Shown: positions 5,485-14,697 of the stretch, piece after piece
Position numbering within the stretch: position 1 is the stretch's first letter
Layout of the letters: each line of letters starts with the position of its first letter
Source: Methanobacteriota archaeon
GTDB lineage: Archaea > Methanobacteriota > Methanobacteria > Methanobacteriales > Methanobacteriaceae
Length of the DNA: 64,000 bases
Assembly: GCA_963787255.1 (NCBI GenBank)
Contig: CAWBCJ010000018.1
Coordinates: forward strand, 32,001 to 96,000
Reading direction: 5' to 3'
Translations under genes and position numbers: made by a program
Notes under the pieces: model-generated
What the model saw: only the letters and a program-made list of their open reading frames with translations
Databases searched by the model: none
What the model was told of the DNA's origin: nothing

Positions 5485-6540
5485 CTATTTCCATGTTTTA
5501 TTACTTGATTTTATAAATTCTTGAAGTTTTTTAGTAGCATTACCCGATTTTACAGCTTCAAAAGATTTTTTAACTCCATCGGGGAGATTGTCTACAATGT
5601 TTGCTAAAAATAAGATAGCGGCAGCGTTTACAAGGCATAAATCCAGTCTTGCCCTGTCAGTTTCAGTAGTATTTTTACCTTCTAAAACATTAACTGCTAT
5701 TTTTTTATTTTTTTCTAAATTAGATGAAGCTTTAATAAATTCTTTATCTATCTTTTTTATTCCAAAATCTTCAGGATATAGTTCTTTAACTTCAATCATG
5801 CCTTCATTAATAAATGCAACTTTTGTTTTGCCAATAGTGGAAATTTCATCCATTGCAGGATTTCCTTCTTCGTCAAACCCGTGAACCACCATAGCATGTT
5901 TTATATCCAACTTTCTAAGCACATTAGCCATGATTTCAACGTATTTTGGGTCGAAAACCCCTAATAATTGTATATCTGCACTTGCAGGCGATGTAAGAGG
6001 ACCTAAAATATTAAAAACTGTTCTAGTTCCAATTTGTTGCCTTATGGGCATTACATGTTTCATTGCAGGATGAAAATTAGGTGCGAACATGAATCCTATA
6101 CCTGCCTGTTCCATACATCTTTCCACTTCCTTGGCATTACAGTCTATATTAACTCCAAGAGCTTCTAAAACGTCCGCACCACCGCATTTACTTGTTATGC
6201 TTCTGTTACCATGTTTTGCAACTGCAACACCACATGAAGCAGCTATAATGGCAGAAATAGTGCTTATATTAAATGTTTTTAGTTTATCGCCACCTGTACC
6301 GCAGGTATCAACAAGAGGAGCATTAATATCTGGAGAAACGCTAATACTAACCTTACGCATTGCCTTTACAAAACCAGTTATTTCATCAACTGTTTCACCC
6401 TTCATGGAAAGAGCAGTAAGAAGAGATGCTATTTGAATGTTGCTTGCATTACCGCTAACTATATGCATCATACAATCGTAAGCTTCTTTTTCACTTAGAT
6501 CTTCAAATAACACCACTTTTTTGATACATTTTGCCATCAT
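5485..6540 (-). CDS. trpD: Anthranilate phosphoribosyltransferase
   Basis: DTCGTGGD, KHGNRS, FAPNFHPAM motifs; last gene of the trp operon. Confidence 0.97.
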   Translation of the reverse strand: MMAKCIKKVVLFEDLSEKEAYDCMMHIVSGNASNIQIASLLTALSMKGETVDEITGFVKAMRKVSISVSPDINAPLVDTCGTGGDKLKTFNISTISAIIAASCGVAVAKHGNRSITSKCGGADVLEALGVNIDCNAKEVERCMEQAGIGFMFAPNFHPAMKHVMPIRQQIGTRTVFNILGPLTSPASADIQLLGVFDPKYVEIMANVLRKLDIKHAMVVHGFDEEGNPAMDEISTIGKTKVAFINEGMIEVKELYPEDFGIKKIDKEFIKASSNLEKNKKIAVNVLEGKNTTETDRARLDLCLVNAAAILFLANIVDNLPDGVKKSFEAVKSGNATKKLQEFIKSSNKTWK

Positions 6541-6556
6541 TTTATAATCACGCAGT

Positions 6557-7366
6557 CTAGATCTTTGTTGCTTCTTTTAGTTCCCTGCAAAAAACAGCGA
6601 TTTTCTGTAGCATCACATCTTTATTTTCCTGATTTTCAGTGATTAAGTTTAATATGGCACTTGCAACAATTGCACCGTCAGCTCCGGACTTTATAACTTC
6701 CCTAACGTGCTCTGGTTTTGAAATACCGAAACCAACGCATATGGGGAGGTCGCTGTTTGCTTTAACACGTTCTATTAGCTCAACAGAGCTGTTTTTAAGT
6801 TCACTTCTTGCACCGGTTATTCCCATGACTGCCACTACGTAAAGAAAACCTGAACAAATTTCTGTAATTTTAGGTAGTCTTTCATTGCTGGTACTTTGAG
6901 CTGCCATGAAAATCTGCTGAATTCCATTTTCTTTGGAGGCTTTAAGAGCATCACCTGCTTCTTCAGGGGGTAAATCTGCTGCTAGAACTGCATTTGCACC
7001 GCTTTCTCTTGCAGTTTTGTAGTATTTATCAAGACCCATTTTGTAAATTAAATTGTAATAAGTCAAAACGCCAATGGGAATATCTGTAAATTCTCTTACC
7101 TTTTTAATAAATTCAAACCCTTTTTGCACTGTCATTCCAGCTTCAAGTGCTCTGATATCAGCAAGTTGTACCGTTGGCCCATCAGCTACAGGATCGCTGA
7201 AAGGAAATCCTATTTCCAATGCGTCGGCACCATTTTGGGCGAAGGTCTTTACAATTTCAAGAGAGGTTTCAAAATCAGGATCTCCAGCAACAATAAATGG
7301 GACAAAAGCACCTTCATTTTTTTCTTTTACCCGCTTGAACATTTCATTGTAAGTTTCTATATTCAT
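6557..7366 (-). CDS. trpA: Tryptophan synthase alpha chain
   Basis: [17 protein letters not shown] and VGFGIS motifs. Confidence 0.97.
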
Positions 7367-8536
7367 ACTTTCACCCCCATAAGCTTTGCAAGTATGTCCA
7401 CGTCCTTATCTCCCCTTCCAGAAAGATTTACAACTACAGTTTTACCTTTATTCTCTGCAGCGTACTTTTCAAGGCATCCTATGGCATGAGAACTTTCAAG
7501 CGCAGGTAAAATTCCTTCATATTTAGAAAGAAGCTCAAAACCTCTAAGTGCTTCATCATTTGTAATTGGAACATATTTTGCACGTCCTGTGGTTTTAAGA
7601 TAGGAATGTTCAGGTCCAACTCCAGGATAATCAAGCCCTGCAGATATTGAATGCGCTTCTGCTATTTGTCCGTCACCATCTTGAAGAACAAATGATAAAG
7701 AACCGTGTAAAACTCCTTCAGTTCCTGCAGTGAGAGTTGCTCCATGTTTACCATTCAATCCTTCACCACCACCTTCAGCACCAATTAATTCAACTTCTCC
7801 GTGCTCTATAAACTCTGAAAAAATGCCTATTGAATTGCTCCCACCCCCAACACAGGCAATCACGGCATCTGGAAGTTCACCTTCTTTTTTAAGTATATCT
7901 TCCTTGGTTTCTTTTCCAATAACTGTCTGAAAATGCTTTACCATCATAGGGATATGGGTGCGGCCCCATCGATGAACCAATAAGATAATGAGTTGTGTCT
8001 ACATTTGAAATCCAGTCCCTAAGAGCGTCATTAATAGCATCCTTAAGGGTTCTAGAACCGCTTTCAACTGGAATAACCTTAGCTCCGGATAATTCCATTC
8101 TAAAAACGTTCAACTTCTGCCTTTCAACATCCTCACTTCCCATATAAACTTCTGTGGGAAATCGAAGTAGTGAACCAATTACTGCGGTTGCTATACCGTG
8201 TTGACCCGCCCCTGTCTCTGCAATAAGTCTTTCCTTACCCATGTATTTTGCAAGAAGTCCCTGACCGAGAGTATTATTTATTTTATGCGCTCCAGTATGC
8301 AGCAAATCCTCTCTTTTAAGGTATATTTTACAGCCAAGTTTCTCTGAGAGATTCTTCGCATGATAAAGAGGAGTAGGTCTCCCTGCAAAATCCCTTAAAT
8401 AATGCGCAAGTTCTTCATTGAACTTTTTATCATCTTTATACTTTAAAAACGCCTTTTCCAGCTCTTCAAGTGCAGGAATAAGTAGTTCAGGAACAAAAGC
8501 CCCTCCGTATTTACCAAATTTGCCGTCTAATATCAT
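7363..8536 (-). CDS. trpB: Tryptophan synthase beta chain (one +1 frameshift near 7950, probably an assembly error)
   Basis: [15 protein letters not shown] (PLP lysine), AETGAGQHG; GPHPYP continues after one extra base into MMVKHFQ...[13 protein letters not shown]...NLSGRGDKD. Confidence 0.93.
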
Positions 8537-9186
8537 AAATTCACCCTGCAAGTTTCCATAAATTCAATAATTTTAGATTTATTTTTGATTCCAGGACTTT
8601 CTTCAACTCCAGAATTCACATCAACGTAATCAAAAATCTTTTTAATCATTTTTCCCTCATTATTCATCCTTTCTGTATCCATTCCACCTGCAAGAAATAG
8701 TTTGATATTGGGATTAATTGCTTTTGCAGTTTCAGCGGCTCTTTCTGCAACCTCCAGGGGAATCTGCTTTCCAGTGCCTCCACTTTTCCCTGAAACCAAG
8801 GAATCAAATAAAAGATATTCACAAACCCTTGAAAACTCTTCTATTTCCAATATTTTGGAGCTATTAATTTTTTCTGGAATTCCAATGACTTTAATAACAT
8901 TAAAACCTTCTATATTGGCTATTTCCCCGGGAGACAATGAATGCAACTGCACGTTTCTAACCCCACATTCTTCAGCCTTATCTACAACTTCAATAACAGT
9001 TTCAGGCTCTAAAACAAGAACTGCTTTTTCAGGATTTTTCATCATTTCCTTTAATTCATTTATTTTTTCTATTTCCACGAACCTCTTAGATCTTTCAACG
9101 TTTATAAAGCCTATAAAACTAGGATTGAATTCTTCACAGGTTTTAAGGTCACTAAACCTTGTGATTCCGCATATTTTAACCTGCAT
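8533..9186 (-). CDS. trpF: Phosphoribosylanthranilate isomerase
   Basis: [27 protein letters not shown] motifs. Confidence 0.95.
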
Positions 9187-9187
9187 T

Positions 9188-9980
9188 TTAATCTAACCTT
9201 GCATTTTTTCCTGCTTCAACCAGTTCATTTACCTTTTCCGATATATCTTGTGATTCCATTATACTGGAGCCAACTAAAACTGCATCTGCACCATAACTAC
9301 CTAAAACCTTTACTTCTTCGCCATTTTTAACCCCGCTTTCAGATACTAAAATTGTATTTTCCGGCACATGTTTTGCAAGTTTTTTGGTTCTTTTAAGGTC
9401 AATGCTGAAGTCTTTGAAGCTTCGATTATTTATTCCAATAATTTTTGCGCCCGCTTTCACTGCTTTTTGAATTTCTTCCCGATTTTTACATTCTACCATC
9501 GCATCCATTTCAAGATAACTGCATAAATCAATTCCAAATCGGGAGATCCTTGTATAAATCTGCCATTAAAAGCACTGCATTAGCTCCACATGATCGCGCT
9601 TCATAAATCTGGTATTCATTAATTATAAAATCCTTTCTAAGGATCGGTAGCTTACTTATTTTAGATGCAATGCGCAGATTTTTGATATTGCTTTTAAAGA
9701 AATTTTCCTCGGTTAAAACTGAAATAGCACTTGCACCTCCTTTATCATATAATGGAATAACCTCTTCAACAAGAAGATTAGAGATATCTCCTTTGGAGGG
9801 AGATGCAGGTTTGTATTCACATATTATGGAAACATCCGTTTTGTCTAAAAGTGCATTTTTAAAATCTGCCCTTATCTTTGTCCCACGAATATTTTCTTTT
9901 AGTTCACTTAAAGGCCGGTATTTCATTTCCCTTTCAAGCGTATTCTTCCTTTGAGCAATTATATCGTTAAAATTTATCAT
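9188..9980 (-). CDS. trpC: Indole-3-glycerol phosphate synthase (one frameshift near 9535-9545)
   Basis: EYKPASPSKG, ISVLTE, LRKDF in the first ORF; IGINNR, VSESG, VLVGSSIM in the second ORF. Confidence 0.93.
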
Positions 9981-10552
9981 GTTTTTCCCTCAAGGAAGTT
10001 TTTGATTATCATCAATCCATGTTTAGTGCCTATAGACTCTGGATGAAACTGAAGACCGTAAATTGGACTTTCAACATGTTTTATTCCCATTATAATTCCA
10101 TCTTCAGTCTTTGCAGTTATTTTGATACATTCAGGTAAGCTTTTTTCGTCGCAGATAAGAGAATGATATCTTGTTGCTTCCAGTGAATTTTCAACGCCTT
10201 CGAAGATACCTTCGTCAGTATGAGTTATTTTACTGAGTTTACCGTGAATAGGTTCTGATCTTCTGATTTTGCCCCCGAATGCTGCAAAGATGCCTTGATG
10301 CCCTAAACATACACCAAGGATTGGTATCTCATCTTTTAATTCCATTATAACTTCGTTGCAAACTCCAAAGTCCTTTTCATTGGTTGGATTTCCAGGACCG
10401 GGAGATATTATTATTTTATCCGGTTTTAACTGTCTTATTTCTTCAACAGTTATTTCATCATTCCTTTTAACGAGAATATCCGAATCAACTTCTCCTATTA
10501 ACTGGTAAAGATTGTAGGTAAATGAATCATAGTTATCAATTATGAGTATCAT
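9977..10552 (-). CDS. trpG: Anthranilate synthase component II (glutamine amidotransferase)
   Basis: IDNYDSFTYNL, SPGPG, GVCLGHQ, QFHPES. Confidence 0.96.
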   Translation of the reverse strand: MILIIDNYDSFTYNLYQLIGEVDSDILVKRNDEITVEEIRQLKPDKIIISPGPGNPTNEKDFGVCNEVIMELKDEIPILGVCLGHQGIFAAFGGKIRRSEPIHGKLSKITHTDEGIFEGVENSLEATRYHSLICDEKSLPECIKITAKTEDGIIMGIKHVESPIYGLQFHPESIGTKHGLMIIKNFLEGKT

Positions 10553-10555
10553 TGA

Positions 10556-11935
10556 TTATTCCTCCATGCTGAAATTCTTGCTGCTTGCAATTTCAAGAGC
10601 ATTGATAATTGCCCGGGCCTTGCTTTCGCACTCATAATATTCATTTTCAGGATTAGAATCGTGCACGATTCCTGCACCGGCCTGTATTTTGGCATGATTA
10701 CCGTTACAGATTAAAGTTCGTATTGTAATTGCAAAATCGGCATTTCCATTAACTGAAAAATATCCCAAAGCTCCGGCATATGGTCCCCTGGAAATTCCTT
10801 CTAACTCATTGATTATTTCCATTGCCCTTATTTTAGGAGCACCGCTTACAGTTCCTGCAGGGAACATAGAGCCGAAAGCATCTACTGCGGTCATATCTTC
10901 TCTTAAAACTCCTGTAACACGTGAAACAATGTGTTGCACATGTGAGAATTTCTTTACTGTCATGTATTCAGGCACATGCACAGATTCAAATTCGCTTACT
11001 TTTCCAACGTCGTTTCTTGCTAAATCAACAAGCATCAGATGTTCTGCGAGCTCTTTTTCGTCTTGAAGGAGTTCAATTTCCAGTTTTTTATCTTCGTCTT
11101 CAGTTGTCCCTCTTTTGCGTGTTCCTGCTATTGGATATGTTTCAACATTTCTTCCTTCTACCCTTACAAGCATTTCTGGGCTTGAACCGATTATTTCATG
11201 CTCTTTAAGCTTTAGATGGTACATGTATGGTGAGGGGTTCATTTCGCGAAGTGTTTTATAAATTGAAAGTTTATCTCCACTTATTTCATATTCACGGGCA
11301 TTGGATATGACGCTCTGGAAAATTTCACCAGCTTTTATCTTTTCTTTAGCTTTGATCACCATTTTTTCGTACTTTTCTTTGGTATAATGGTGGTTTTTGA
11401 ATTTAAATTCAATATTTCCGATATTGTAAGATTTTTTTGCAACTTTAATTATTTCTTGAACTCTGTTTTCTCCAAGGGTCACGTATTTGCATTTATTTTT
11501 TAATCTATCAAAAACTATTGAATCTAAGAATAAACCAAATTGGAAATCAGGATAGTTGGACTCCTGAAATTTTATATTTTCAAAATGTCTTGTTGCCTCG
11601 TAGGAGATATAACCTACAAGACCCCCGTTAAATCCTTTTTGGTTAGTAATTTTTAAATTGAGCTTTTTTATCAAGTTAAATGGATTTTGTGATTTAATTT
11701 CTTCTTTGATTCCATCTTTTTCTATTTCCAATATATTTCCACGTGCTTTTAGGATTGCTGCTGGTTTAAAGCCCAGTACAGAATATCTGGCAAGACCGCT
11801 GTCGCTTTCCATTGATTCAAGGAGGAAAGCGCTATCATAGTTTCTATAAATATTTTTAAATAGTTCAAATGGGGAATCGAAGTCTAGTTCGATAGTTTGA
11901 GGTTTTTTTAACTTAATGTCGCCAAAAACATTCAC
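10556..11935 (-). CDS. trpE: Anthranilate synthase component I
   Basis: LLES, NPSPYMY, AEHLMLVDLARND, PAGTVSGAPK; annotated GTG start lacks a well-spaced RBS. Confidence 0.96.
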   Translation of the reverse strand: MNVFGDIKLKKPQTIELDFDSPFELFKNIYRNYDSAFLLESMESDSGLARYSVLGFKPAAILKARGNILEIEKDGIKEEIKSQNPFNLIKKLNLKITNQKGFNGGLVGYISYEATRHFENIKFQESNYPDFQFGLFLDSIVFDRLKNKCKYVTLGENRVQEIIKVAKKSYNIGNIEFKFKNHHYTKEKYEKMVIKAKEKIKAGEIFQSVISNAREYEISGDKLSIYKTLREMNPSPYMYHLKLKEHEIIGSSPEMLVRVEGRNVETYPIAGTRKRGTTEDEDKKLEIELLQDEKELAEHLMLVDLARNDVGKVSEFESVHVPEYMTVKKFSHVQHIVSRVTGVLREDMTAVDAFGSMFPAGTVSGAPKIRAMEIINELEGISRGPYAGALGYFSVNGNADFAITIRTLICNGNHAKIQAGAGIVHDSNPENEYYECESKARAIINALEIASSKNFSMEE

Positions 11936-11945
11936 TGCCTTTCAT
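11913..11945 (-). CDS. Putative trpE leader peptide MKGSECFWRH overlapping the trpE start
   Basis: AGGTG 7 nt before ATG; ATG AAA GGC AGT GAA TGT TTT TGG CGA CAT TAA; one Trp codon. Confidence 0.5.
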   Translation of the reverse strand: MKGSECFWRH

Positions 11946-11980
11946 ATTATTTCACCTTATATATTTCTTACAATTCAGTA

Positions 11981-12082
11981 TATACAGTAAAGTACTATTT
12001 AAAGCTTTATAGTACAAATATGTGCTTTAAAGAACTTTATATAGAATGAACAATATAGTGACGTTTAGAACAATTATGTACA
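11981..12082. promoter_or_regulatory. TRP boxes (TrpY operators) in the divergent trpE/trpY promoter region
   Basis: Three pairs of TGTACA-like hexamers, each pair 4 bp apart: TATACA/AGTACT (11981, 11991), AGTACA/TGTGCT (12011, 12021), AGAACA/TGTACA (12067, 12077); TGTACA is the known TrpY consensus in Methanothermobacter. Confidence 0.8.
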
Positions 12083-12103: not shown

Positions 12104-12607
12104 ATGTGGGAAAAAATCAAACATAAATTTGAAAAATATCCTGCCCGAATGGATGTAGCACGTAAAATAATTGAATATGGACTTCGTGTAGGAGAAAAAG
12201 GAAAAATATACTGCGGAGACATCGAAATAAGTGACGTAGCCATTGCAAGAGCAACAAAAGTTGATAGAAGAAGCATTAAAGCTACTGTAAACATAATACT
12301 TGAAGATGAACAGCTGGCAAAAATATTCAAAAACATCACTCCTGCAGGACCCCTAGTTAAAAATGTAGCTAAGGATCTTGGCTTTGGAATTGTGGAAATA
12401 GAAGCAGAAGCAGGAAACCCTGGAATAATAGCTAGTGCTACAGATTTAATAGCCACTAACAGGATAAGCATAAGGCAGGTGCACGCAGGAGACCCAGAAT
12501 TTGAAGAAAATCCCCGCCTTACCATAATAACAGAAAAACCAATTGAAGGTAACCTCATAAATGAATTTTTAAAAATAGAAGGCGTAAAACGAGTGTCTAT
12601 TTACTAA
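12104..12607 (+). CDS. trpY: Tryptophan-sensing transcription regulator (HTH plus ACT domain)
   Basis: Divergent from trpE; MW N-terminus; IARATKVDRR HTH; ACT-like PGIIA...ISIRQ. Confidence 0.88.
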   Translation: MWEKIKHKFEKYPARMDVARKIIEYGLRVGEKGKIYCGDIEISDVAIARATKVDRRSIKATVNIILEDEQLAKIFKNITPAGPLVKNVAKDLGFGIVEIEAEAGNPGIIASATDLIATNRISIRQVHAGDPEFEENPRLTIITEKPIEGNLINEFLKIEGVKRVSIY

Positions 12608-13406: not shown

Positions 13407-14697
13407 ATGGATATTGTAGTAATTGGTGGAGGTCCAGCAGGTCGAACAGCCTCAATTGAAGCAGCAAGCATTGGAGAAAACGTTACTCTAATTGAAGGAA
13501 ACTCAATTGGAGGTACGTGCCTTAATGAAGGCTGCATGGTAGTCTGCGGCTTAAATGACTTTTCAAAATTTCTGCTGGATGCGAAAAACTTTAAAAATCT
13601 TGGTATAATTGATAAAACTCACGAATTTGAATTTGATAAAGTAATAAAAGGCAGTAAAGAATACTATTTCTAAAATAAGTCATGTTCTTGAATATGAAAC
13701 TAAAAAAGCAGGAGCAGAAATAGTAATGGGAAATGCAAAGATTGAAGATGAAACTGTCCTTGTTGATAATGAAGAATATGACTATGACAAATTGATAATA
13801 TCTACTGGTGCTAGACCGTTTATTCCAGAGATTGAAGGCGCAGAGAACGCAATTACTTATAAAGATATTTTAAAATTAACTGAACTTCCAGAAAAGATGA
13901 ATATATTAGGTAGTGGAGTTATTGCAGCTGAATTTGCTGGGGTATTCTCTATAATGGGTACAGAGATTAATATTTTATGTAGAAACCAGTTTTTAGGAGC
14001 ACTTGACGAAGATATCAAAGATTACGTCACTAAAAACCTTTTAACTGATGTTGTAATCCACGAAAATGTCCAGACAAAAAAGATTTATAAAGATCATATA
14101 TCAACAGAATACGGAAAAATAGATGGTAAAACTCTTTTTGCAACAGGTACAGTTCCAAATTCTGAAATAGCTTCAGATATTGTGGATATAAACGAAAAAG
14201 GCCATATAATTGTGGATAATAAGATGCAGACAAGTAATGAAAACATATATGCTGCAGGAGATGTAGCTGGAAAAATAGGTAACACTCCGATTTCAAGGGC
14301 AGAAGGAGTAACTGCAGCAAGAAATGCCTGTGGAATCTATACAGAAATGGATTACAGTCTTATTCCCTATTCAATAAATTTATATTACGACGTAGCATTT
14401 TTAAGTTCTGAAAATGAGAGCGGAGGTATAGATGGATATATTCCAGGTTCTGCAGGGCCGGGATCATTTTGGAGAGCTCTTGAGGGTATGACAGGGCTCA
14501 CGAAGATGAATGTAAATGAAAATAGAGGTGTTAATAATATATTTTCAATTTCACCTTCTTCAGGCACCAGTATGGCATATATATCTAAGTTATTAAGAGA
14601 AGGGCAGAAAATAGATGATTTCGATGATTTTATGGAAGTTCATCCTTCCACAGATGCAATTTATAAATTAATGAGGTTTTTTGCCAGGTTTGAATGA
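13407..14697 (+). CDS. Dihydrolipoamide dehydrogenase-like FAD/NAD disulfide oxidoreductase (one frameshift near 13652)
   Basis: GGGPAG, GGTCLNEGC redox disulfide, YAAGD, C-terminal HP; the two ORFs join if one base is removed. Confidence 0.85.

Follow-up and report, generated by a model that had tools for sequence, protein, structure and literature searches.

How is anthranilate synthase translated when the strong initiation signal at the 5' end of its gene lies one base out of frame? This question is raised by trpE, the gene encoding component I of the enzyme, in a Methanobacterium whose genome (assembly GCA_963787255.1, here G000; G+C content 33.4%) was analysed over a stretch of 64,000 nt, referred to below as the window. 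On the minus strand of the window, a short leader open reading frame (ORF) with a well-placed start codon overlaps the beginning of trpE, and contains a Trp codon at the end of a run of T residues. We propose that TrpE is, on balance, probably made mainly by a programmed +1 ribosomal frameshift, in which tRNA-Phe would slip on UUU_U while the following UGG awaits Trp-tRNA. This would represent regulatory +1 frameshifting, a known kind of recoding, in a new form, and it is the reading that the sequences best support. The anatomy of the leader, its conservation in related methanogens and a switch of selective constraint at the T-run were established by direct comparison of the trpE loci.

The leader ORF and the trpE frame

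The leader ORF reads ATG (11945-11943) AAA GGC AGT GAA TGT TTT (11927-11925) TGG (11924-11922) CGA CAT TAA (11915-11913). At the same site, the trpE frame reads ATA TGA AAG GCA GTG (11935) AAT GTT TTT GGC GAC. The latter frame is shut by the TGA, which overlaps the leader ATG and lies directly upstream of GTG 11935, and for this reason the GTG is the sole canonical start codon of the trpE frame. A TTG within the T-run was rejected as a possible start, since it lies in the third frame and yields just a 6-codon ORF. The product of the frame opened by the GTG is a TrpE of the archaeal type (544.9 bits against TIGR01820 in a profile search, with a cut-off of 512.05 and a match to model positions 1-449).

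Upstream of the leader, AGGTGA (11957-11952) is followed by AATAAT and then by the ATG, which leaves a spacer of 7 nt counted from AGGTG. The 16S rRNA of this genome ends in ...GGATCACCTCCT, which is complementary to AGGTGA, and GGTGA is therefore a true Shine-Dalgarno (SD) sequence. No conserved SD was found for GTG 11935: the bases preceding this codon vary between relatives, and the conserved SD is the one that serves the ATG, at a distance of 15-16 nt from the GTG. The site has in this respect the build of a programmed +1 site, where an upstream 0-frame ORF with an efficient start overlaps a long +1 ORF devoid of a good start signal.

A TATA-like box (TTTAAATA) probably acts as the promoter, which would give a 5' untranslated region of approximately 20-30 nt. 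TTTAWATA is present 51-61 nt 5' of the leader start in 47 of the 61 loci which share the conserved core described below, and because of this position the SD and ATG are most likely carried on the trpE mRNA. A leaderless mRNA beginning at the GTG was considered and rejected: the TATA-like stretch about 26 nt upstream of this codon, found in an AT-rich genome, is absent from the Methanothermobacter-type genus, and the conserved element is instead the TTTAWATA placed upstream of the ATG.

When TTTT is read as a single Phe step, the leader and trpE frames are fused to give MKGSECFGDIKLKKPQTIELD (computed translation). In terms of positions, a +1 step would shift the pairing to TTT 11926-11924, and the next codon would be GGC 11923-11921, which belongs to the trpE frame. 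An earlier note on this DNA had claimed that AGGTG, with its 7-nt spacing, serves ATG 11945 and not GTG 11935, that the leader runs from ATG to TAA one base out of the trpE frame, and that a +1 slip at UUU exposes GGC in the TrpE frame. The first of these claims agrees with the sequence and with the position of the SD in 50/61 loci, the second is exact, and the third is borne out by the joined translation.

An obvious objection is that one extra base, introduced by an assembly or sequencing error or belonging to a decaying gene, separates the two frames, and that the true start is a plain MKAVNVFG. This caveat, which the earlier note had raised itself, draws some weight from private frameshifts of this assembly, in which trpC has an open frame of 153 codons and trpB of 224 codons (the same genes are intact in 4/4 relatives checked, with 266-280 and 393-400 codons, respectively), and from the fact that one relative, G097, has the ATG in frame. 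However, contigs from four metagenome runs (four studies; 95-99% alike) span positions 11913-11955 with the identical arrangement and without an inserted or missing letter. The sole difference, 11918 G>A, occurs in two of the four runs and is silent with respect to the trpE frame. Moreover, the arrangement recurs in 60/61 fetched loci and once each in 125/328 genomes. An assembly error at the leader site is refuted by these contigs together with the conservation across relatives, and the probability that an extra base explains the locus is negligible.

Conservation in the Methanobacteriales and the change of frame at the T-run

The device is carried by this Methanobacterium and about 150 related methanogens, and it occurs in three families of the order; the conserved core of the leader/trpE overlap is GTGAATGTTTTTGG. 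A TrpE search of 40 relatives gave 30 loci, 29 of which were readable (L001-L030 without L019, which is cut at a contig end). All 29 contain an SD and an out-of-frame start codon 10 nt before the GTG, followed by ...GAA TNY TTT TGG, and the same arrangement was found in 7 of 10 further loci. The strict pattern RTG-N6-AGTGAATNYTTTTGG has exactly one match per genome in 125 of the 328 genomes of the order (13/29 genera), and the reversed control gave 0 matches in every row; in the 60 fetched loci carrying the pattern, it is always placed at the trpE 5' end. To avoid circularity, the order was also searched with the first 145 residues of TrpE, which matched 293/328 genomes, and 5' ends were then fetched from 29 genomes with a close TrpE yet no match to the strict pattern. 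Twenty-four of these bear the device with small changes (codon 4 TGT or GGT; GAA replaced by GAG; TGT replaced by TGC), G097 (locus L056) is one base shorter and has its ATG in frame, and four, belonging to the genus g14, are leaderless.

In total, the core GTGA[AG]T[GA][TC]TTTTGG was found in 61 of the 69 loci (L001-L069), and 60 of these 61 have an out-of-frame start (59 ATG, 1 GTG) positioned 10 nt upstream of the GTG. The replacement of ATG by GTG, seen in one lineage (L028), is what would be expected of a start codon. GGTGA is located 4-7 nt upstream of the leader start in 50/61 loci, with a weaker SD-like core in the remaining 11. The eight loci without the core comprise one contig-end fragment, the four of g14, G039 (from another order) and two with a different TrpE (about 46% identity). 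This divergent type, sampled in five more genera (about 45% identity), has a plain SD with an in-frame ATG or GTG and no leader. A relaxed pattern matched 129/251 genomes, a figure which includes a few off-target matches, and its "phylum" sample amounts to the same order and one genome (G039). Two off-target matches (L075, L076) have no SD and are chance-like, and the other five were judged by their differing letters alone. The device is also present in the genus whose TrpE is letter-for-letter the anthranilate synthase of NCBI-named Methanothermobacter (thermautotrophicus). Nothing alike was seen at other genes of the Methanobacterium genome in a crude and noisy scan of 1457 long frames, which gave 33 "odd" cases including trpE.

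The leader peptide of the 61 core loci can be written as M-x-x-[S/C/G]-E-[C/Y]-F-W followed by 0-18 variable codons. The sequence of codons 2-3 varies, their number never. The position of the stop wanders, so that the peptide has 8-26 aa, and two leaders end directly after W. As the leader stop is not conserved, the function of the leader must end at TTT TGG. The claims of the earlier note concerning these features fared unequally: the arrangement of ribosome-binding site, ATG and TTT TGG is indeed conserved across the Methanobacteriales (60/61), while the stop placed three codons after Trp holds for this genus only and is found elsewhere 0-18 codons past TGG.

The pattern of substitutions is informative about the frame in which the region is read. 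We numbered GTGAATGTTTTTGGC as positions 1-15 and compared 58 distinct sequences, among which variation is confined to positions 5, 7, 8 and 15. In the leader frame, positions 5 and 8 fall on third codon positions, where GAA/GAG and TGT/TGC (as well as TAT/TAC, in the wider set) are silent; in the trpE frame, the same changes replace N by S, V by A and I by T. The third positions of the trpE frame (3, 6, 9 and 12) never vary, though AAC, GTN and TTC would be silent. Position 15, which is the first trpE-frame third position past the T-run, does vary (C, A, T), and downstream of it the trpE codons are highly variable, even at first and second positions. TTTTGG itself is unchanged in 61/61 core loci. 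It follows from this variation at positions 3-15 that the constraint switches frame at the T-run. Judged by the substitutions, selection tracks the leader frame up to the run and the trpE frame after it, and a conserved site at which purifying selection changes frame is what characterizes a programmed +1 site. On the same codon evidence, the apparent conservation of the TrpE residues N-V-F-G is an exact shadow of the leader codons E-C-F-W.

Two other explanations address parts of this pattern. The first is that the leader encodes an arrest peptide, whose nascent [S/C/G]-E-[C/Y]-F-W senses free tryptophan or Trp-tRNA in the ribosome (as in TnaC or the short drug-dependent leaders), the stall controlling trpE with or without a frameshift as the output. 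The conservation of E, C/Y, F and W at the amino-acid level, with silent codon changes, would suit such a peptide, as would the constant count of exactly 7 codons ahead of W in the face of freely varying codons 2-3. It would, however, be only 8 residues long at the Trp codon, there is no terminator or sequestering hairpin upon which a stall could act, and the stalled ribosome would hide the GTG; we give this explanation a low probability. The second operates at the transcript level: RNA polymerase might slip on the T-run to produce an in-frame mRNA, or the run might be an early oligo-T terminator (an attenuator). Archaeal polymerases terminate at oligo-T tracts, and five T residues are present in the window (11928-11924). 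In several lineages, though, the run is just 4 T (TGC TTT TGG), known slippage-prone runs are far longer than this, and the conserved SD and ATG, the fixed 10-nt offset and the frame signature are left unexplained. Such a transcript-level event appears highly improbable.

Several natural variants of the locus were encountered. L056 (G097:C21:79870-80170) is the only locus with an in-frame leader ATG. It reads ATG AAA GCT GTG AAT..., with one G fewer than its sisters (GGC), the corresponding database protein (P0048) begins MKAVNVFG, and the locus represents a constitutive form that arose naturally, or else an error of assembly. An ATG in frame with trpE in relatives had been named beforehand as a finding that would count against frameshifting; among the 61 core loci, it occurs in G097 alone. 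Where leader codon 2 is AAT (P0005, P0035, P0063; G123:C2:535250-535273), A-ATG-GCA-GTG makes an extra in-frame ATG 4 nt past the leader ATG. Gene callers annotate these variants as MAVNVFG, and both starts share one SD. Finally, in g14 (L066-L069) and L031 (G039:C1:100900-101600), trpE lacks a leader, and its open frame has none of ATG, GTG and TTG close to its 5' end. An in-frame ATT (g14) or ATC (G039) stands there 4-5 nt downstream of an SD (GGTGG, GGTGA or GGAGGTG). TrpE may start at these near-cognate codons, in which case the gene would have a further start of an unusual and possibly weak kind.

How the trpE frame may be entered

According to the mechanism we propose, ribosomes would load at the strong SD, initiate at ATG 11945 and make M-K-G-S-E-C-F, which would leave tRNA-Phe(GAA) on UUU in the P site and UGG exposed in the A site. 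With charged tRNA-Trp plentiful, Trp would be added and the nearby out-of-frame stop reached, yielding a useless peptide of 8-26 residues. With charged tRNA-Trp scarce, the A site would stay empty, tRNA-Phe would re-pair from UUU_U to U_UUU, GGC would be read and translation would continue in the trpE frame. The trans-frame product of the Methanobacterium would begin MKGSECFGDIK. The site would sense Trp-tRNA directly, atop transcriptional repression by TrpY, and the regulatory direction is right, as less charged tRNA-Trp would give more TrpE. In addition, 1.4 kb of mRNA would be left naked if trpE were not translated, and by polarity on trpGCFBAD the event could set the expression of the whole trpEGCFBAD operon.

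The tRNA set of the genome is compatible with this scheme. There is one tRNA-Phe gene, with anticodon GAA; wobble allows this tRNA to read UUU in either frame, and UUU_U, present in 61/61 loci, permits it to re-pair perfectly. A single gene also encodes tRNA-Trp (anticodon CCA); it was detected only with introns allowed, and ARAGORN reports an intron of 73 nt. No Trp codon other than the leader TGG occurs at the start of the operon (neither TrpE nor TrpG contains W), and the trp operon as a whole has 5 W in 2062 residues, compared with 0.8% in the long frames of the genome. UGG would be expected to be decoded slowly under Trp limitation. A programmed frameshift is the simplest reading of the strong start, the fixed seven-codon run-up, UUU_U, the invariant UGG and the free-floating stop. 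The broader claim, that in most Methanobacteriales, including Methanothermobacter, the sole productive route to anthranilate synthase would be a +1 shift at UUU_UGG triggered by uncharged tRNA-Trp, is put forward more tentatively, as a possibility that falls a little short of probable. As for other ways of shifting, a +1 slip at AAA_G (codon 2) was ruled out, codon 2 being unconserved, and no downstream stimulatory hairpin was found.

The shift may be helped by the nascent S-E-C-F peptide or by the GUGA which includes the GTG. GTGA (positions 1-4) is unchanged in the 58 distinct sequences, and one relative (P0103) shows GTGG. Lying 4 nt before UUU, GUGA could pair with the 16S tail. In prfB, the gene of bacterial release factor 2, an SD-like element stands at a strained 3-nt spacing from the shift codon. 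The trpE site does not have a stimulator of this type: GUGA is 4 nt from UUU, and the spacing at real starts is 4-6 nt.

The main alternative is that TrpE starts at the conserved GTG 11935. The leader would then be an independent upstream ORF that overlaps trpE; its translation, with pausing at the Trp codon, would modulate either the use of the GTG as a start or the fate of the mRNA, and no frameshift would be involved. The GTG is invariant in 58/58 distinct sequences, its leader-silent T included, and is the annotated start in 115 of the 120 database relatives (a choice made by gene callers and not an experimental result). Natural in-frame variants read (K)AVNVFG, so that the residues of the trpE frame are tolerated, and the 14-nt core is constrained in both frames, which is the outcome expected of dual coding. 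On the other hand, the GTG has no SD of its own. Considering the usual size of a ribosome footprint, a ribosome halted with its P site on UUU would cover the GTG 8 nt upstream, and Trp starvation would therefore lower TrpE, which is the wrong direction. Re-initiation after the leader stop would also act in the wrong direction, and is implausible with a stop 18 codons past W. Furthermore, the silent trpE-frame positions 6, 9 and 12 are fixed while TrpE residues 6-20 are very variable; the conservation therefore belongs to the leader and the T-run, and not to the TrpE N-terminus. We consider initiation at the GTG unlikely, while regarding it as a serious contender.

It should be borne in mind that several further observations weigh against a frameshift. 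The trpE-frame GTG and the A following it are invariant, and leader coding leaves the invariance of the T unexplained; leader codon 4 is always NGT, never NGC, TCN or GGN, which has the look of a real start codon. The invariant GTG is either a real start codon, or part of a GUGA acting at the RNA level, for example through base-pairing to the 16S tail when UUU occupies the P site. GUGA and UUU are separated by a relaxed, initiation-like distance, GUGA pairs with just 4 nt of the 16S tail, and a push of the prfB kind is not evident. Forms in which the two frames have been resolved keep the residues of the trpE frame (MKAVNVFG in G097, MGNVFG in an odd 324-aa protein, MAVNVFG in three clusters), and no relative with the leader peptide itself fused in frame was found among the loci and proteins compared. 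TGG is inseparable from a T followed by the GG of Gly, and the trpE frame could in principle be what keeps it invariant. Frames of 400-520 aa with zero W, such as TrpE, are not rare here (30/240). No conserved or stable downstream RNA structure was detected in 13 loci (z from -1.2 to +1.2); this nevertheless agrees with +1 sites whose shift depends on slow decoding in the A site. To our knowledge, hungry-codon frameshifting has not been demonstrated in archaea.

The translational Trp sensor suggested in the earlier note is thus upheld in part: the SD and ATG, TTT TGG and the offset are conserved in three families and the substitutions switch frame, but the GTG is equally invariant and a start at this codon remains a rival. 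The TrpY repression on which the sensor was said to be layered agrees with the neighbourhood of the operon, as the gene divergent from trpE is, by its score against NF053754 and its position beside trpE, classed as a member of the TrpY family. The features of the region are listed in Table 1.

Table 1. Features of the trpE region, in coordinates of the window
Feature	Position	Strand	Basis or remark
Leader ORF, MKGSECFWRH + stop, 10 codons	11913..11945	-	sequence; one base out of trpE frame
Proposed shift site	11922..11928	-	T-run 11928-11924; leader TTT 11927-11925, TGG 11924-11922
trpE, anthranilate synthase component I, archaeal type	10556..11935	-	459 codons from GTG; 0 Trp codons
GTGA	11932..11935	-	GTG = only canonical trpE-frame start; 4 nt before UUU
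Shine-Dalgarno AGGTGA serving ATG 11945	11952..11957	-	sequence; 16S complementarity
TATA-like box TTTAAATA (putative promoter)	11996..12003	-	58 nt 5' of leader ATG, about 40 nt 5' of AGGTGA
trpG-C-F-B-A-D, downstream of trpE	5485..10552	-	Pfam matches; trpC and trpB each split here
trpY, TrpY-family regulator, divergent from trpE	12104..12607	+	NF053754, 224.1 bits vs cut-off 180

The suspicion, voiced in the earlier note, that the assembly contains spurious insertions proved justified away from the leader, as trpC and trpB are split in this assembly only. trpB (7363-8551, minus strand) consists of two overlapping frames with a break at about 7935-7950 (...GPHPYP, an extra base, MMVKHFQ). 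trpC (9186-9980, minus strand) ends after 150 residues, and its second half is in another frame. These breaks are private frameshifts of the assembly, either errors or the result of recent decay. Two adjacent ORFs on the plus strand (13407-13673 and 13726-14697; 88 and 323 aa), the first of which has a dinucleotide-binding-like N-terminus with GGGPAG, may likewise be one oxidoreductase gene split by a private frameshift.

Known systems and the meaning of the site

The +1 autoregulation of prfB (CUU_UGA_C) shares with the proposed trpE mechanism a short 0-frame ORF with a good start, P-site re-pairing at NUU_U, a slow A-site codon which reports the level of the thing that the gene helps to make, and an upstream SD-like element (here possibly GUGA). 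The trpE sensor would differ in being a sense codon, UGG, read by Trp-tRNA, instead of a stop codon read by a protein factor, and in operating in archaea. The shift would occur 7 codons after the start, with a relaxed rather than strained spacing of GUGA.

The +1 site of yeast Ty1 is CUU_AGG_C. In influenza A virus, PA-X is produced by a +1 frameshift at UCC_UUU_CGU (PMC3498833). As proposed for trpE, a P-site tRNA-Phe (or tRNA-Leu) on NUU slips +1 in these cases while the A site holds a slowly decoded sense codon, and a downstream structure is not required; they differ in that the slowness results from a constitutively rare tRNA and gives a fixed product ratio, not a nutrient sensor. The +1 frameshift of antizyme is described as a polyamine feedback sensor (PMC3113565), and has in common with the trpE site a metabolite-dependent shift that exerts negative feedback on a biosynthetic pathway. 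In antizyme, the end product stimulates the shift and an inhibitor is made, whereas at trpE a shortage of the end product would stimulate it and the first enzyme would be made. The trpE site has, moreover, neither a stop codon nor a pseudoknot.

Leader-peptide transcription attenuation of the bacterial trp operon is mediated by trpL. A similar attenuation has been described for pheL (PMC3082878). These systems also have a short leader ORF with codons for the end product before a biosynthetic operon, and a translating ribosome that senses charged tRNA. The trpE leader differs in overlapping the frame of the enzyme, and its proposed output is the reading frame and not termination. It does not resemble a trpL-type attenuator, as it has a single Trp codon and no alternative terminator/antiterminator hairpins were found in 13 loci.

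Hungry-codon frameshifting in starved E. coli is presented in a review of recoding as a laboratory phenomenon (Atkins et al. 2016, PMC5009743), and the same review states of functional trans-frame proteins arising from such starvation-induced shifts that "no examples are known". The trigger proposed for trpE is the same, namely an A site left empty by shortage of the aminoacyl-tRNA for its codon, with re-pairing in the P site; trpE would differ in being a conserved, selected natural case. Neither trpE nor anthranilate is mentioned in the first 300,000 of the 449,034 characters of this review. The literature searched contained no description of a frameshift or a leader ORF at a methanogen trpE, although earlier notice in primary papers on this promoter region is possible.

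Several practical consequences follow. The N-terminus or start of TrpE may be wrong in hundreds of records, and gene callers would always miss the site. The 24-nt signature is a compact, portable candidate for a Trp-responsive element in Methanothermobacter, for which a shuttle-vector system exists (PMC8609365). Even with a start at the GTG, an island of 14 nt that is invariant over three families, together with a translated leader containing a Trp codon, needs explaining.

To conclude, what is known of how archaea regulate amino-acid biosynthesis concerns transcription almost exclusively, as exemplified by the control of the trp operon by TrpY (PMC6737238), and there is no established archaeal counterpart of leader-peptide attenuation. 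If the proposed mechanism is true, the trpE site would be the first natural, conserved "hungry-codon" frameshift, filling the gap stated by the recoding review (PMC5009743). It would also be the first case in which a biosynthetic operon of any sort senses an amino acid translationally in this way, and the first in which a cellular gene of an archaeon undergoes regulated +1 frameshifting. The methanogens of this order would then possess a functional analogue of bacterial attenuation, which acts through the choice of the reading frame.

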